Below are positions 2,695 to 20,389 of a DNA stretch of 37,735 nt, piece after piece. The DNA comes from a virus. Its lineage: Duplodnaviria; Caudoviricetes. Position 1 is the first letter of the stretch, and every line of letters begins with the position of its first letter. A program made the translations under genes and the position numbers. The stretch lies in the IMG/VR virus record IMGVR_UViG_3300037484_001196, positions 1-37,735 of that record; one strand, 5' to 3'. Under the pieces are notes generated by a model, which worked only from the letters and a program-made list of their open reading frames with translations, ran no database searches and was not told the DNA's origin.

Positions 2695-4434
2695 ATGGCA
2701 GAGGTGAGCAAGCCGATCATGGGCCAGGCGATCTTGGAGTGGCGGCAGGCGCCGCACCGGCTCAAGGGGCGGGTGCTGGGGGAGTGGCTCCGGGTGTTGG
2801 GCATCAGCCGCAACGCCTTTTACCGGGAAGCGAAGGATTGGGGCGAGATGAAAGAACGTAAAACCAGACGCGACCAGGGGACCAGAAAGCTGGCGATCCC
2901 GGCCCTGAAAGAGGCGGTGGAGCGCCTGTGGCAGTTGAAGCACCGGCCGCCGCCGGGGGTGCGCCTGAGCAGCACCGAGACCGCCCTGGTCTACGGGGTG
3001 GGGCAGGGCCTGCTGCCCCCGGAGCTGGCCGCGGTGCCCATCGGCAGCCTCAACCGCATGGCCCGGGAGTGGGGCTGGCAGGCGGCGCCGGAGCGCCTGA
3101 CCCGCTGGCAGGCTTCGTTAGCCAACCAGGTGCACCAGTTCGACAGTTCCCATAGTGAGCACTTCTTCCCCCACCGCCCGGACGGGGATGACTGGATTCT
3201 CCGCCTCCGGCCCCGGCGGATGAAGAACAAGGAAAAGATCGAGGGCCTGGCGGTGATCGCCTACGGCCTGTGCGACGACCACTCCGGCCTGCGCCTGTCC
3301 CGGTACACCGTGGCCGCGGGGGAGAGCGCCCGGGGGAGTATCGACTTTCTACAGTGGGCCTGGAGCACGGACCCGGAGCACGCCCCCTTCGAGGGCTGGC
3401 CGGACGAACTCTACGTGGACAACGGCCCCCTGACCCGGCACCGGGCCTTCGACGCCTTCGCCGAGCGCCTGGGCCTGAAGGTGACGCCGCACATGCCCTA
3501 CAAATCCCGCTGCACCGGCAAGGTGGAAAACAACTGGCGCACGCTGTGGCGGAAATTCGAAAACGTCTTCTTCTTCAACCCCGCCTGGGAGTCCTTCGAA
3601 ATCCGGCTCTCCGAACTCAACCGGGAGTGCGCCGCGTTCTGGCGGGAGCACAACCAGTCCCGGCACCGGCAACTGGCCTGCTCCCGGGAGGCCGCCTGGC
3701 ACCAGTCCATCGTGGCCCGGGGCGGGGTGGTGCGGGTGGCGCCGGACGCCTGGGACACAGTGTTTGTGGAGGCGGAGCGCCGCCTGGACGACGCCGGGTG
3801 CTTCGATTTCAAGGGGGCGGCCTATCAGGTGGACGGGATTTGGGGCTGTCAAATCAAGGTGTTCTGCAATCTCAAGGATCAGTCAATTATTGTCCAGGAC
3901 CAGCGGGACGGGAAGCGCTACCGGGCCCAGCCCTTTGAATTGCGGGCCTGGGGGGATTTCCGGGGGGCGCCCAAGAGCGAGCTTTCGCGCCTGAAAGAGG
4001 CGGACGAAGGCAAGGCCTCCCGGATACCGGCCCCGCCCAGTTGGGTGAAGGCGGCGGGTAACGTGGTGGTCTTGCCGCCCCGGGCGGCGGAGGTCAGGGA
4101 GAGCGGGTTTGAAATGCCGCAAATCCCCCCCAGCCCCCCTTTAGAAAAGGGGGGGGAGAGTTTCGAGGATCTGGCCGCGGGGGTGCGGGTGATTCAGAGG
4201 CCCGAAAGGACCGCAGGCGGGGACGCCTGCGCCACTGGGGCTACGGGCGACATCGAGGAGCCTCTGGCCCCGACCCTGGAGCAGTACATTGATTTGAAGA
4301 TCAAGGCCCGGACCCAGCGCCTCAGCCCCCGGGAGGCGAATTTCGTCACCTGGTACGAGGCGGAACATGCGGCCATGATGCAGCAGTTTAAGGGCGATAT
4401 TGAGATGCGGGTCAGGCTGGCGGCGGTGGAGTGA
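2695..4434 (+). CDS. MuA-like DDE transposase
   Basis: HQFDSS, DDHSG, PDELYVDNG, GKVENNW integrase-core motifs; 579 aa; followed by an AAA ATPase. Confidence 0.9.
   Translation: MAEVSKPIMGQAILEWRQAPHRLKGRVLGEWLRVLGISRNAFYREAKDWGEMKERKTRRDQGTRKLAIPALKEAVERLWQLKHRPPPGVRLSSTETALVYGVGQGLLPPELAAVPIGSLNRMAREWGWQAAPERLTRWQASLANQVHQFDSSHSEHFFPHRPDGDDWILRLRPRRMKNKEKIEGLAVIAYGLCDDHSGLRLSRYTVAAGESARGSIDFLQWAWSTDPEHAPFEGWPDELYVDNGPLTRHRAFDAFAERLGLKVTPHMPYKSRCTGKVENNWRTLWRKFENVFFFNPAWESFEIRLSELNRECAAFWREHNQSRHRQLACSREAAWHQSIVARGGVVRVAPDAWDTVFVEAERRLDDAGCFDFKGAAYQVDGIWGCQIKVFCNLKDQSIIVQDQRDGKRYRAQPFELRAWGDFRGAPKSELSRLKEADEGKASRIPAPPSWVKAAGNVVVLPPRAAEVRESGFEMPQIPPSPPLEKGGESFEDLAAGVRVIQRPERTAGGDACATGATGDIEEPLAPTLEQYIDLKIKARTQRLSPREANFVTWYEAEHAAMMQQFKGDIEMRVRLAAVE
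4120..4158. repeat. C/G-run hairpin repeat, copy 3 (diverged, in frame in the transposase)
   Basis: AAATCCCCCCCAGCCCCCCTTTAGAAAAGGGGGGGGAG. Confidence 0.8.
4212..4235 (-). repeat. REP-like palindrome in frame in the transposase
   Basis: Identical to 2293-2316. Confidence 0.85.
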
Positions 4435-14163: not shown

Positions 14164-14624
14164 TGGCCGGGAGCAAAGAGTCAGCCTATTACGAGGAAGC
14201 CCGGCGGCTCTACGTCAAAGAAAACCTGACGGTGGATCAGATTGCGGCGCGGCTCCACGGCGAAGTCAGCACCAACACCCTGTATAAGTGGGCCAAAAAA
14301 GGCGATTGGGGCCAGGAGCGGGCTGCGGCCCTGAACAATCCCCGGGATATCGCCGAGTGGCTGCGGCAAACCCTGAACGGTCAGATGGAGGCCCTGCAGG
14401 CCGAGGCCCAGAAAAACCCGGCGGCCATCAACCCGGGGGTTTATGACGCCATTTATAAGACCGTCCTCACCATTGAGAAGCTGGAAAAGAGCCAGGACCT
14501 GAGGGCCGCGGCCATCATGGTGCTGGATAAATACGGCGAGTTCCTCAAGGGCCTCGACCTGGCCCCCGGCGAATTGCAGATGCACAGCGGCCGGATGCGG
14601 GAATTTTTCCGGAGCATCGAATAA
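14163..14624 (+). CDS. Terminase small subunit-like (DUF1804-type HTH)
   Basis: ARRLYV.E.LT...IA....VS.NTLYKW.K.GDW; directly before TerL. Confidence 0.75.
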   Translation: MAGSKESAYYEEARRLYVKENLTVDQIAARLHGEVSTNTLYKWAKKGDWGQERAAALNNPRDIAEWLRQTLNGQMEALQAEAQKNPAAINPGVYDAIYKTVLTIEKLEKSQDLRAAAIMVLDKYGEFLKGLDLAPGELQMHSGRMREFFRSIE

Positions 14625-16246
14625 TGGCGCGCACCCTCAAGGTTAAGCTCACCCGCAAGCAGTTCCAGGAGAAGGCCGACCAGATCCTCGGCCGCCTCTT
14701 CCGGGAGGTGGCGGCGTTTGAGGACACATCCGAGGCCGCCAAACAGGCCCGGCGGGAGCGCACCCGCACCGACCATTTCGAGTTTTTCCGCACCTATCTG
14801 CCCCACTATTTCAGCGCCCCGGAAGCGCCGTTTCATCATGAATTAATCGCCCAGGTGGACCGGCGGCCCGGCCCCGGGGAGGTGGTGACCCCGACGGTGG
14901 ACGCCGCCCCCCGGGAAGGGGCCAAGTCCACCATCGTCTCCTTCGGCTATTCCCTGCACCAGATCTGTCACGGTTTGCGCCATTTCATCATTCTCGGCAG
15001 CGACACCGAGGACCTGGCCTCAGACCTCACCGGCTACATCTATTTGGAGCTGCTCTACAACGAGCGGATCAAGTGCGATTTCGGCGAGCTGGTGCGGGAA
15101 AACTGGGCGGTGGACGATTTCGTCACCCTGAATGATATTCGCCTCAAGGCCCGGGGCCGGGGCCAGCGGCTGCGGGGCTTGAAGCATAAGCAGTTCCGGC
15201 CCGACCTGGTGATCCTGGACGACCTGGAAAACGACCAGAACGTCAAAAGCCCGGACCTGGTGCGTAAGCTCCTGGCCTGGGTGACCCGGGCGGTCTACCC
15301 GTCCATCGACGCCTCCGGGAGCCTCTTGTGGATCGGGACCATCCTGGCCAACAAGAGCGCCCTGTGGATCGCCATCCACTCCAAGGAGGAGCCCTGGTGC
15401 CACTGGCAGCGGCACCTGTACCGGGCCTTGAACGAAGAGACCGGGACGGACGGCAAAACCATGCTGGTGTCGTTCTGGCCGTCCCTGCACCCGGTGCCCA
15501 AGCTCCTGGAACAGAAAAAGATGATGGGGTCGCTGGCCTTCAACACCGAAAAGCAGAACGACCCGGTGAACGAAGAAGGCGTCTTCCAGGAGGACTGGTT
15601 CAAGTATTACCACCCCGAAGAATTGAGCGGCAAGCACCTGGTGGTGGCCGGGTTTTTCGACCCCTCGGTGGAGGGCAATGCCACGTCAGACTACAAGGCC
15701 ATCCTCACCGTGGGCTGGGACCGCCGGGAGATGATCTATTACGTCCTGGACGCCTACATCCGCAAGGCCTCCATCGACGCCGCCATTGCCGCGGCCTATG
15801 CCCGGCATGAGCAGTGGGGCTACTGGCAGTTCGGGGTGGAGGTCGTCGCCTTCCAGAAATTATTGCTGCGGGAATTCGACCGGGCCGCCCAACAGCGGGG
15901 CTTTCACCTGCCCCTCAAGGGCACGGGTCAGACCATCAACAAAGAGATGCGGATCTTCGGCCTGTCCCCCAAGGTGGAGCGGGGCCAGATCCGGTTTTGC
16001 CGGGGCCAGGGCAATCAGGACCTGCTCATTGAGCAACTGCTCTATTTCCCCTCCAAGACGGTGAACGATGACGGCCCCGACGCTTTGGAAGGGACCCTGC
16101 ACCTCCTGGAAGGCGGCGCCGGCATGGGCCTGTTCGATTTTTACCGGGACGAAGTGGGGAAGCAGCAGGCGGAGGAGGCCCGGAGGAAGGGGCAGAGAAC
16201 AGTAGCCAGTAGCCAGGCGACCTACTCTCGCAATTTTACGCTTTAA
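14624..16246 (+). CDS. terL: Terminase large subunit
   Basis: APREGAKST, RPDLVILDDLEND, FFDPS, DDGPDALE. Confidence 0.92.
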   Translation: MARTLKVKLTRKQFQEKADQILGRLFREVAAFEDTSEAAKQARRERTRTDHFEFFRTYLPHYFSAPEAPFHHELIAQVDRRPGPGEVVTPTVDAAPREGAKSTIVSFGYSLHQICHGLRHFIILGSDTEDLASDLTGYIYLELLYNERIKCDFGELVRENWAVDDFVTLNDIRLKARGRGQRLRGLKHKQFRPDLVILDDLENDQNVKSPDLVRKLLAWVTRAVYPSIDASGSLLWIGTILANKSALWIAIHSKEEPWCHWQRHLYRALNEETGTDGKTMLVSFWPSLHPVPKLLEQKKMMGSLAFNTEKQNDPVNEEGVFQEDWFKYYHPEELSGKHLVVAGFFDPSVEGNATSDYKAILTVGWDRREMIYYVLDAYIRKASIDAAIAAAYARHEQWGYWQFGVEVVAFQKLLLREFDRAAQQRGFHLPLKGTGQTINKEMRIFGLSPKVERGQIRFCRGQGNQDLLIEQLLYFPSKTVNDDGPDALEGTLHLLEGGAGMGLFDFYRDEVGKQQAEEARRKGQRTVASSQATYSRNFTL

Positions 16247-16386: not shown

Positions 16387-18633
16387 ATGGCTGAAGGCAA
16401 AAAGACTACCATCAATCCGGGGATTGTCAGCCGGGTGGCCCAGGGCCTGAAATACGCCTTTACCGGCCGCGCCCCGGAGGCCTGGTTCGGCCCGGGCGAG
16501 CCTCAGGCGCCGGCGGCGCCTGAGGCGGTCAAGGGCCGCCAGTGGGATTATGCGTCGGGCTACAACCTCAGGACCCAGCCCCGGGGCGAAGAGGCCCTCT
16601 CCTTCGGGCAGCTCCGGGCCCTGGCCCAGAACTGCGACCTGGTGCGCCTGGCCATCGAGACCCGCAAGGACCAGTTGTGCAAGCTCGCCTGGACGATCAA
16701 GCCCACGGAGGAAACCGCCGCCGGCGGCAAGCGCCTATTGAACGCGGCGGAGGGCCAGGCCAAGGAGGCCCGGGCCCTATTCAAGAAGCCCGACCGGGTG
16801 CACCGCTGGAATCAATGGCTGCGCATGTGGCTGGAGGATATGTTCGTGGGCGACTGCGCCACCCTCTATCCCCGGCCCAACCGGGGGGGCGGCCTCTATG
16901 CCCTGGAGGTGATGGACGGGGCCCTGATCAAGCCGGTGCTGGCCGACGACGGCCGGGTGCCCCTACCGCCGGCCCCGGCCTATCAGCAGATACTCAAGGG
17001 CGTGGTTGGCGCGAATTACACCCTGGACGAACTGATCTATTTTCCCCGCAACCCCCTGTCCTGGCGGGTGTACGGCCTCTCCCCGGTGGAGCAGATCATC
17101 CTGACGGTCAACATCGTCATCCGCCGCCAGATCCACCTGCTGCAATACTACACCGAGGGCAATCTGCCCGACTCCCTCCTGGAGGTGCCGGAAGGCTGGA
17201 ATACCGAACAGATCCGGGAGTGGCAGCAATACTGGGACGCCCTGTTCGCCGGCAACACCGCCCAGCGCCGCCGGGGCACCTGGGTGCCCAAGGGCATGAC
17301 GCCCCACAGCATGAAAGAGGCGGCCCTGAAAGACCCCATCGACGAATGGTTCGCCCGGGTGGTGTGTTACGCATTCTCCCTGTCGCCGCAGGCCTTTGTG
17401 CAGCAGATCAACAAGGCCACCGCCGAGACCGCCCAGGAAATGGCCCTGGAAGAGGGCCTGGCGCCGGTGCTGGAATGGGTCAAGGACGGCATTGACGAGG
17501 GCCTGGCCCGGGGCGGCTTCGACCTGGTGGAGTTCGCCTGGGAGGAGGAGTCCTCCATCCGGCCCAAGGAACAGGCGGAGATTGATGAGATCCACCTGCG
17601 CTCCGGGCTGCGGGGGCGGACGGAAATCCGCCAGGATCGGGGCTACGTAGACGACGGGGTGCCGGATTTTATCGTGACCGTGGGGGGGCCGGTGCTGCTG
17701 GAGGAGATAGGGAAAGAGCAGGAAGAGCAGTTGCCAGTGGCCAGTAGTCAGTTGCCAGTAAAAATCAAAGAAAAACCCGACGCCGCAGTAGCAGGACCAG
17801 CCCCACCGGGAGCAATTAACGGAGCGCTCCCGGTGGAGAAGCTGGCCAAGGTTGATGCGGACAAAAAAATAAAGCCCATTGACCGGGAGCGGCCGGAGAT
17901 GGTGACGGCCCGGGCCGCCCTGCAAAAGCTGATGCTGGCGGCCCTCCAGGCCGACGCCGTCGCCGCGGCGGCGCATCTGGCCAAGGGGTTGGGGATGGCC
18001 AAGGCCGAAGAGGACCAGGCCGCCAAGATTGAGGGACTGCTAGAGGAATTGCAACTGGCCGGGATCTCGGCCACCCAGGCCGAAGTGGCGGCGGTCCTCA
18101 CCCAGGCGGCCCAGAACGGCGGCCTGGCGGCGTTGGTGCAGGTCGGCGTCATTGAGGCGGCCGAGGGCGAGAAAGCCGCCATCGTCAACCAGGTCAATGA
18201 GCTGGCGGTGGAGTGGGCAGAGCACCGGGCGGCGGAGCTGGTGACCAAGATCCAGGAGTCCACCCGGGATTACCTCCGGGCCGACGTCACCCAGGCGGTG
18301 GAGGAAGGCTGGAGCAGCCAGCAGTTGAGCCAGGCCCTGGAAGAGAATTTCGGGTTTTCCGCCAGCCGTTCCAATACCATCGCCCGGACGGAGATCGGCC
18401 AGGCCGACGTGGAAGGCAATATGATGGCCTACCGCACCTCCGGGGTGGTGGTGGGCAAGGAGTGGATTTTGGGCTCAGGGCACCCGAAGCCGGACCAGTG
18501 CGACACCAACGCCGCCGCCGGGGTGATTCCCCTGGCCGAGGCCTTTCCGTCCGGGGACCAAAATCCCCTGGCGCACCCCAACTGAGTCTGCGATGTTCTC
18601 CCGGTCCTGGGAGAAAAGGGAAAAATCGCATGA
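16387..18633 (+). CDS. Portal protein fused to a MuF (minor head) domain; predicted selenoprotein (Sec at TGA 18583-18585, 748 aa)
   Basis: Portal motifs (YGLSPVEQ); MuF motifs IARTE, KEW, FPSG..PLAHPN-TGA-VC; SECIS-like hairpin; the next stop overlaps the downstream ATG. Confidence 0.85.
18586..18615 (+). promoter_or_regulatory. Bacterial SECIS-like element
   Basis: Stem TTCTCCC (18596-18602)/GGGAGAA (18609-18615) with loop GGTCCT, starting at the 11th nt after the UGA. Confidence 0.75.
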
Positions 18634-19223
18634 TCGACCGCCTCTTGAAATCCTGGCACACGCAGATCCCGGCCATGAGTTGCGAGCCGGGTTGCCGGGA
18701 GTGCTGCGAGGGCGACGCCCGGTCCATGACCCTGCATGAGTGGCGGGAGATCCGGCATCCGGGCAAATACGCCACCGGCCCGGCCCTGGCCGCCTGCCCC
18801 TTCCTGGGCTCGTGCGGCTGCGAGATCTACAATCGGCGGCCTTTGGTCTGCCGGCTGTTCGGCACGGTAGCCCCGGATGACCCGGCCCTGGTGGAGTTGG
18901 CGGGGACGTTCCCCATCAGTTGCCCCCGGGGGCATTATCCGGAGGCGCCCCTGCCCCTGGCCGCAGCCCTGCGGATGCAGGTGGAGTATCAGAATTACGC
19001 CAACCGGGAACTGCACCAGGTGATCGAGGACTGGCAGAAGTTTTTAAAGGACCCCAGGTTGGAAAACCTGGGCCACCAGGCCCTACCCGAGAAATTCCAG
19101 TGGCTGCGCTATGTGCTCTCCACCCGGGAAGGGCAGACCACCTTGCGCCTGCTGTCGGGTCAGACCCCGGTGCAGATTGATCCTGAAAAGATGGCCCGGA
19201 TGACGGCCATGTTAGGAGGTTGA
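18630..19223 (+). CDS. YkgJ-family (CxxCxxCC-like) cysteine cluster protein
   Basis: CEPGCRECC...CPFL...GCEIYNRRPLVCRLFG...CP; start at ATG 18630. Confidence 0.82.
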   Translation: MIDRLLKSWHTQIPAMSCEPGCRECCEGDARSMTLHEWREIRHPGKYATGPALAACPFLGSCGCEIYNRRPLVCRLFGTVAPDDPALVELAGTFPISCPRGHYPEAPLPLAAALRMQVEYQNYANRELHQVIEDWQKFLKDPRLENLGHQALPEKFQWLRYVLSTREGQTTLRLLSGQTPVQIDPEKMARMTAMLGG

Positions 19224-19225
19224 GG

Positions 19226-20389
19226 ATGGAAAGAATTTTATTCATGCCGCTCACCAAGGTGGTGGAGCTGAACGACGGTACCGTGGAGGTCTGGGGCCGG
19301 GCGGCGGCGGAAGAGCCTGATCCGAAAAAGGAGATCATGGATTACGCCGCTTCGAAGCCTCTGATCAAGGCCTGGTCGGATAATGCCTTTGCCGCCAGTG
19401 GCGGTAAGTCCCTGGGCAACCTGCGGGCCATGCATAATCCGAGAGTTGCCGCCGGCATCGTTACCAGTCTGAATTTTCTGGATGAGGAAAAGGCCATAGA
19501 CGCCGTCGCCAAGGTGGTGGACGCCGAAGAGGTTAAAAAAGTCAGAGCGGGCGTCTATACCGGTTTTTCCATCGGCGGCAGCTACGCCCGGAAATGGCAG
19601 GACGGCGACTACACCCGCTATGCCGCGGCACCCTCGGAACTCTCCCTGGCCGACAACCCCATGATCAAATCCGCCCGCTTCACTTTGGTGAAGGTGGACG
19701 GCAGTGTCGAAGAAAAAGATTTTCAAGGTCCGCCGGCGGGGACGCCGGCGCCTCTGGGGGAGGCCAGCCCCACGCTGCAAAAACGCCTCAATGATGTCGG
19801 CCGCCTGGCGGGCTTGCTGTCCGAATTACGCTGTCTGTTGCCCTCAGTGGTCTATGAGGCGGAAGAGGAAAAGGACGGCTCCACCGTGCCGGCCCGCCTG
19901 CAGGCGGCGCTACTCGACCTGGCGAAGATCTTCAAGGATTTCGCCGCCGAGGAGGCCGGGGAGATGGCGGCCGAGGTGCGGGCGTTACTGACGCAGCCCG
20001 TTGAAGCCATGGCCATGAACAAGGTTGACAATTCGCAGGCGGCGACGCCCGCGCCACAAGGAGGAAGGGAACAGATGCCTACACTGGAGCAGTTGGAAAC
20101 ACTGGTAACGGGCCTGGGCGAGCGCCTGGAAAAGGTGGAGGGCGACTTCAACGCCCAGGGAGAGCAGTTGGCCAAGGTGGAGGCGGAGAACGCCGCGCTC
20201 ACCGAGCGCCTGGCCAAGGTGGAGGCCCAGCCGGCGTCCCCCCAAGGGGTGCTGAAGGTCGTGGACAAGGGGGACGATGTGCACCCCCTGGGCAAGGTGG
20301 ACGGCCCCTCGGAAGAGGACATGATCAAAAACAAGGACACCCAGGGCCTCATCAAGGCGGCCCACGGCAACCCCATCAGCCTGGGCTAA
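19226..20389 (+). CDS. Prohead protease/scaffold protein
   Basis: GNLRAMH, YTGFSIGG, ELSLADNP; coiled-coil C-terminus; precedes the capsid gene. Confidence 0.8.
   Translation: MERILFMPLTKVVELNDGTVEVWGRAAAEEPDPKKEIMDYAASKPLIKAWSDNAFAASGGKSLGNLRAMHNPRVAAGIVTSLNFLDEEKAIDAVAKVVDAEEVKKVRAGVYTGFSIGGSYARKWQDGDYTRYAAAPSELSLADNPMIKSARFTLVKVDGSVEEKDFQGPPAGTPAPLGEASPTLQKRLNDVGRLAGLLSELRCLLPSVVYEAEEEKDGSTVPARLQAALLDLAKIFKDFAAEEAGEMAAEVRALLTQPVEAMAMNKVDNSQAATPAPQGGREQMPTLEQLETLVTGLGERLEKVEGDFNAQGEQLAKVEAENAALTERLAKVEAQPASPQGVLKVVDKGDDVHPLGKVDGPSEEDMIKNKDTQGLIKAAHGNPISLG

Follow-up and report, generated by a model that had tools for sequence, protein, structure and literature searches.

Does the in-frame TGA in the portal-MuF gene of this phage act as a stop codon, or is it read as selenocysteine (Sec)? 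The window, that is the whole stretch of DNA analysed here, is an entire virus record of 37,735 bases, linear and with an estimated completeness of 56%. Judged from Gam, GemA, a TniB/AAA protein and a terminase large subunit, the phage looks like a Mu-like transposable phage. The gene for the terminase large subunit (14624..16246, plus strand; TIGR01630 over cut-off) lies upstream of portal-MuF, in the context of a packaging module. On the same strand, the portal-MuF gene read through its internal UGA spans 16387..18633 and is predicted to encode 748 residues; if the UGA terminates, the product has 732. The shorter reading frame (16387-18585) holds the portal domain and only the first half of the MuF domain. 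The portal-MuF fusion proposed in an earlier note on this DNA was recovered as two Pfam matches, a phage portal domain at residues 113-416 (PF04860, E 1e-15; 16723..17634, plus strand) and a MuF/SPP1 gp7-like domain at residues 630-737 (PF04233; 18274..18597, plus strand), the second of which is complete only with read-through. MuF is here encoded fused to the portal, next to the terminase, and comparison with SPP1 gp7 together with the portal fusion would place the product in the virion head.

The explanation that fits best is that the UGA is decoded as Sec by the machinery of the host, giving a selenoprotein of 748 residues. On the sequence evidence set out below, the probability of this reading is put at about 85%.

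Directly behind portal-MuF, a CxxCxxCC-family gene (18630..19223, plus strand; PF03692, E 4e-7) has its start overlapping the second TGA of portal-MuF. A PF03692 gene in this place is common to the close relatives; in one of them (L132) a short extra ORF is present between the two genes, and the ATGA overlap is seen again. Unassigned beta-rich genes follow the head module, and the right end holds a beta-helix protein matched by PF13229 (22938-24079, 35408-37717). A GC-rich motif of ~30-46 nt is repeated at 2617-2662, 4206-4235 and 19720-19752 of the window and was also found by blastn in L134, L214 and L305. Searches of the window for Rfam families, tRNA and tRNA-Sec gave none, and annotated phage records gave distant matches only (31 records, <60% identity).

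The UGA lies on an invariant cysteine of the MuF domain

The frame before the UGA ends in ...GDQNPLAHPN. The TGA occupies 18583-18585 (plus strand) and is followed by the conserved tail VCDVLPVLGEKGKIA and the second TGA at 18631-18633, which together span 18586..18633 on the plus strand. The sequence thus agrees with the earlier description of a frame that goes on past the first TGA to a second one overlapping the next ATG (18630). In full-length homologs with Cys, the distance from the motif to the C-terminal end is similar to that in the read-through product. The TGA had also been assigned to the first Cys of a MuF motif of the type HPNCRC. Its place on the first Cys of HPN-C-x-C holds; the motif of this clade is (P/L)xHPN-C-V-C-D, not HPNCRC.

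An alignment was made of the window domain and 83 homologs (84 sequences). With the window UGA entered as Cys, the UGA column is Cys in 84/84 sequences. The invariant columns include C116, H141, C144 and C146, which correspond to Cys705, His730, the UGA column and Cys735, and also Pro731. Cys705, the invariant upstream Cys, is encoded at 18499..18501 (plus strand). Cys705, His730, Sec733 and Cys735 are predicted to form a putative metal-binding (probably Zn) or redox site of Cys3-His type. With the UGA read as a residue, the excised domain scored 34.9 bits against PF04233 (profile 3-111 of 112). Without read-through the score was 27.5 bits (profile 3-62), under the cut-off of 29.6. The match of the window protein to TIGR01641 was below cut-off. 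A confident AlphaFold model was obtained for the MuF domain (pLDDT 93.6). No solved structural homolog of the domain was found by sequence search or Foldseek, and VIA-align of the model gave generic helical matches only (best Z 8.3, residues 1-99).

A genome-wide reassignment of TGA (code 4 or 25) was considered and rejected, as 24 of the 47 main ORFs listed end in TGA. The long ORFs of the window are open under table 11.

The motif is interrupted in some homologs. In P0032, P0162, P0177, L020/L021 3451 and L155/L156 3451 a long insertion is seen, beginning with CL straight after HPx in several of them. The intein family PF14890 was matched in P0032 and P0162, and P0177 resumes with N-CVCDVLPVL. 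The codon putatively recoded in the window appears from these sequences to be an intein insertion site, with the following Cys as the presumed splicing nucleophile.

A candidate SECIS hairpin follows the UGA

TTCTCCC, whose first base (18596) is the 11th nt downstream of the UGA, pairs with GGGAGAA around GGTCCT. The 7-bp stem reported earlier at this position is real; with a further G-U pair in the predicted fold it becomes an 8-bp stem closed by a GUCC loop (18596..18615, plus strand; loop 18 nt after the UGA) at -10.2 to about -11 kcal/mol. Compared with dinucleotide shuffles, the stability is not beyond chance (z = -0.2 to -1.3). What goes beyond chance is the position, the loop and the recurrence of the hairpin.

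The hairpin was evaluated with our own script of the consensus bacterial SECIS model (PMC13188914, Fig. 2A), which asks for a loop of 3-9 nt, a stem of 4-16 bp, a G in the first two loop positions, a spacing of 16-37 nt and an MFE <= -7.5. The window hairpin fits this model (8 bp, GUCC, 18 nt, -10.2 kcal/mol). Of 49 distinct UGA contexts taken from selD, mvhD and fdh genes in the class of the proxy host described below, the script accepted 37 and missed 12. In the window, 32 of 605 plus-strand TGA trinucleotides pass; among the 24 genes ending in TGA only portal-MuF does so (others 0/23). The host-class fdh hairpins have GGUCU or GGGCU loops at the 18-nt spacing seen in the window, and fdh and selD hairpins of that class together often have GGUC-type loops at 17-20 nt.

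The three TGA versions of the gene, from the window, L132 and L134, all pass, each with the loop at 18 nt, as do 5 of 70 distinct Cys versions. When the comparison is confined to Cys versions with the LPV peptide, the pass rates are 3/3 for TGA vs 5/20 for Cys (Fisher p=0.03, with kinship ignored and three TGA sequences). If a GGUC loop is also required, the rates become 3/3 vs 1/20 (p=0.002, again ignoring kinship and with three TGA sequences). A SECIS-compliant hairpin at the equivalent position was seen in the Cys relatives L011/L012, L006, L013, L014 and L137, the GUCC hairpin of L011 being identical. Such hairpins in Cys genes may be left over from Sec ancestors or may be pre-adaptations. 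The proposal of a SECIS element thus stands in that the hairpin fits the model and is present in all three TGA versions of the clade; it is not exclusive to TGA versions. Because five of the 20 Cys relatives with a similar peptide also pass, the hairpin is weaker evidence than the earlier note implied.

The contribution of the encoded peptide was estimated from random synonymous codons. An equally stable hairpin arose in 2-3% of 2000 draws for the same peptide; the peptide therefore predisposes to the hairpin and does not force it. Across the hairpins of the window, L132, L134 and L089, pairing holds in 31 of the 32 cells, and at two of the pairs both sides are altered. The covariation that had been suggested for checking the element would correspond to these two pairs, but the double-sided changes coincide with amino-acid changes, and the hairpin core follows the LPVL(A/G) peptide.

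It was also considered whether the hairpin serves to mask the ribosome site of the next gene. The next gene and its distance vary among the three TGA phages, and the distance of the hairpin to the UGA is fixed; such a role is therefore unlikely.

The TGA recurs in close relatives

Besides the window's own protein, 243 homologous proteins were scored; the motif was not located by the script in 8 of them. Six of the 243 (P0003, P0007, P0012, P0033, P0165 and P0180) end exactly at the UGA column. P0003, P0007 and P0012 are 69-73% identical to the window protein. The stop was read from DNA as TGA for P0012, whose gene is L132, and for P0003, whose C-terminus is matched by L134. None of 120 shorter homologs ends at this column. 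Seeds lacking the Cys picked up 7 loci in a metagenome scan, two of which (L132 and L134) have the TGA. With seeds of the Cys form, Cys was present at the motif in 82/82 loci, a set that is biased because one seed contained the Cys. A Cys-free search of viral sequences gave no TGA in the 48 inspected of 51 loci, several of them without a locatable motif, and the Cys-free seed search in genomes gave no match. Most relatives carry Cys, including the prophage of the Sec-using proxy host. The alternation of Cys and TGA that had been proposed as a check was thus found: L132 and L134 have the TGA with the same hairpin, and the close homologs are not all Cys.

In the 120 codons that lead up to the UGA, the window, L132 and L134 are pairwise 81-83% identical in nucleotides, and each pair differs non-synonymously at 14-20 codons. 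Past the UGA, the first 8 codons show 2, 4 and 3 synonymous vs 0 non-synonymous differences between the pairs, and the eight residues are identical in all three phages; the signal of purifying selection comes from these 8 codons of three sequences. In the window and L132 it is the second TGA that forms the ATGA overlap with the next gene, and a corresponding overlap is present in 7 of the 13 Cys relatives inspected. P0029, P0033 and P0036, where the script did not locate the motif, were left out of a tree of 33 proteins. Three state changes are needed for the four truncated forms in it, and P0012 is nested in a well-supported group of Cys forms; gains, losses and recombination are not separable by the tree.

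TGA at the same cysteine in other MuF lineages

The same Cys is replaced by TGA in four unrelated MuF lineages, two from viral sequences (L089 and L090) and two from genomes (G132 and G359). The viral pair came from a scan for PxHPN-TGA-RC, in which 2 of 9 hits were MuF genes; a control scan with TGG gave 0/18 MuF. Past the UGA the frame stays open for 105 more codons in L090 and for at least 120 in G132. In 401 genomes of the phylum of the proxy host there were 75 MuF matches, 5 of them with a stop: TGA at the first Cys in G132 and G359, and elsewhere one TGA and two TAG. Both G132 and G359 have selA and selB. The G359 hairpin passes the SECIS test (loop at 18 nt, -10.3), and those of L089, L090 and G132 fail the strict model. 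Three prophage MuF genes, L497 (G450:C32), L498 (G259:C45) and L499 (G435:C30), have a single stop at non-cysteine positions, which is probably decay. For comparison, the phylum of a Prevotella MAG (401 genomes; three tested genomes without selB) had TGA in none of 50 MuF matches. The difference between the two phyla, 0/50 vs 2/75, is too small for significance.

Other pattern scans gave no MuF gene: HPN-TGR-VCD and PxHPx-TGA-xCD in viral contigs (0/2 and 0/19), HPN-TGA-VCD in genomes (0/19) and PxHPN-TGA-RC in genomes (0/122 sites, with under half of the collection scanned). The Sec form is therefore uncommon, a minority allele.

A control scan for TGA at the second Cys gave 9 MuF genes among 14 hits. 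Eight of the nine have several in-frame stops upstream, and a recoded genome is therefore suggested. AT-rich phage MuF genes (L427, L428, L430 and L436-L440) have many in-frame TGA at glycine-like positions, a pattern which suggests phages of genetic code 25. In L431 (G087:C1 678-998, minus strand) the only TGA replaces the second Cys (HPNCR-TGA), the frame is open after it, and the hairpin does not fit the SECIS model. It would represent either Sec in place of the second Cys or a nonsense mutation.

Selenocysteine machinery in a proxy host

The nearest relative resident in a genome is a colinear prophage contig in G001, one of the Deltaproteobacteria, with ~80% DNA identity and Cys at the site. 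The four host genes named in the earlier note were all detected in G001: selA, selB (one over cut-off), tRNA-Sec (anticodon TCA; one over gathering score) and selD with an in-frame TGA. In the class of G001, selD was present in 40 of 41 sampled genomes, with one TGA in each among the matches listed. G001 serves as a proxy only, because the prophage contig may be misbinned into the MAG.

Alternative explanations

The explanation that survives best after Sec decoding takes the UGA as a true stop. Here a 16-residue truncation of an accessory MuF domain would be tolerated or favoured, and the hairpin would be a by-product of the LPVL peptide. A change of TGC or TGT to TGA is a single step, stray stops do occur in prophage MuF genes (3/75, at other columns), the hairpin is present in Cys relatives too, and SPP1 gp7 is reported to be dispensable for assembly (PMC6316719). 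We nevertheless consider a true stop unlikely. The tail past the UGA is kept with synonymous changes only, the ATGA overlap remains at the second stop, and the frame continues well past the UGA in L090 and G132. Moreover, the TGG control gave no MuF gene, and 2 of the 5 MuF stops found are TGA on this one column.

Slightly less probable still is a recoding of the UGA as Cys by an opal tRNA-Cys of the SelC*/SelB* type, known from some Deltaproteobacteria, which would leave the protein chemically unchanged. This reading is compatible with every conservation signal, and tRNA-Cys(UCA) systems of some delta-proteobacteria suppress opal codons (PMC5389517). According to the same source, selC*-containing genomes carry the full Sec apparatus, so Sec would compete anyway. 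The single selB and single tRNA-Sec of G001 also speak against an opal-Cys system, and G435, a genome with two selB hits, bears a TAG allele and not this TGA.

A leaky read-through independent of SelB, by near-cognate Trp or Cys and stimulated by the hairpin, would keep full-length MuF scarce relative to portal. Read-through can be promoted by a hairpin placed 3' of a stop codon. Each SPP1 capsid has only 1-2 copies of gp7 (PMC5576092), so a portal fusion might need such down-tuning. Yet every case with DNA has the UGA exactly on the Cys codon, in most relatives the full fusion carries an ordinary Cys, and a device for setting the ratio would be expected before the MuF domain, not at its end. 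With a loop and spacing that also match the SECIS-like hairpins of the host class, leaky read-through is very improbable. An error of sequencing or assembly, or a nonsense mutation arising only here, has a negligible chance, error in particular being very unlikely because the identical TGA is shared by independent assemblies at 81-83% identity.

Proposed mechanism and implications

Under Sec decoding, host SelB with Sec-tRNA would bind the GGUC-loop hairpin 3' of the UGA, and Sec733 would be inserted at 18583..18585, the codon shared with L132 and L134. Translation would then run 15 more codons to the second TGA, overlapping the start of the next gene. Inside the head, Sec733 would join Cys705, His730 and Cys735 in the predicted metal/redox site of the MuF domain. 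The SelB pathway of bacterial Sec insertion is established (PMC13188914), and for E. coli fdhF a recoding efficiency of 30-40% is reported (PMC4513850). With partial recoding, full-length chains would be made alongside chains of 732 residues, and the portal domain would be complete in either. The gp7 protein of SPP1, a low-copy portal binder, is not required for assembly, though efficient infection does depend on it (PMC5576092, PMC6316719). In view of this dispensability and low copy, partial recoding would be cheap for the phage. Failed recoding would cost only the accessory MuF site, which may explain repeated switching from Cys to Sec.

A broader reading, to which we give more credence than doubt, is that the conversion of this MuF Cys to Sec is repeated and independent in tailed phages of selenium-using anaerobes. 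There would then be a family of virion selenoproteins, and phage assembly or infectivity would be tied to the selenium supply of the host. In the portal fusion of the window, partial recoding would also set how many portal subunits have a complete MuF site.

Sec in MuF, if true, would bring the 21st amino acid into bacteriophage particles, and would mean that the evolution of SECIS elements read by host SelB is open to phages. With it, MuF/gp7 would become accessible to spectroscopy and labelling; this head protein of unknown function is very common, and no solved structure was found for it. The TGA form would also be a sequence marker for Sec-using hosts and would explain phage genes annotated as ending at HPN.

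Comparison with known systems

The earlier note knew of no described tailed-phage structural selenoprotein, and none was found in the literature covered, which leaves subscription journals mostly outside. Table 1 of PMC13188914, a 2026 catalogue of 119 prokaryotic selenoprotein families, has no phage, capsid or MuF entry, and the words 'phage', 'capsid' and 'MuF' are absent from its text. Term searches of the main texts of PMC13326102, PMC12013277, PMC13745706 and 10.1101/2022.07.06.499078 likewise gave no phage selenoprotein. As established viral selenoproteins, only two poxvirus peroxidases are named in PMC6769590 and PMC8310308.

Like bacterial selenoprotein genes such as E. coli fdhF (PMC13188914, Fig. 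2A), the window gene has an in-frame UGA aligned to the Cys of homologs, with coding continuing after it. It also shares with them a hairpin with an early loop G 16-37 nt downstream, a UxC motif and the loop spacing of fdh in the proxy class. Unlike them, it is phage-encoded and its product is a predicted virion assembly protein; the phage record is without tRNA-Sec, and the phage would rely on the host. With the MuF/SPP1 gp7 minor head proteins (PF04233, TIGR01641; background in PMC5512222), the gene shares the position in the packaging module, the MuF domain and the C-terminal HPN-C-x-C, and the fusion to a portal (PF04860) is common among the homologs found. It differs from that family in that the first motif Cys is UGA-encoded and no toxin domain follows. 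The SelC*/SelB* opal-Cys system (PMC5389517) likewise decodes UGA in Deltaproteobacteria; it inserts Cys and not Sec, and it was not detected in the proxy G001.

The poxvirus selenoproteins, MC066L of molluscum contagiosum and the GPX4-like protein of fowlpox, similarly combine a viral UGA and a SECIS element with the Sec machinery of the host (PMC6769590, PMC8310308). They are captured host glutathione peroxidases of eukaryotic viruses, with eukaryotic SECIS elements. In the phage, by contrast, the sequence suggests a native head protein in which an existing Cys was exchanged for Sec by means of a bacterial SECIS element.
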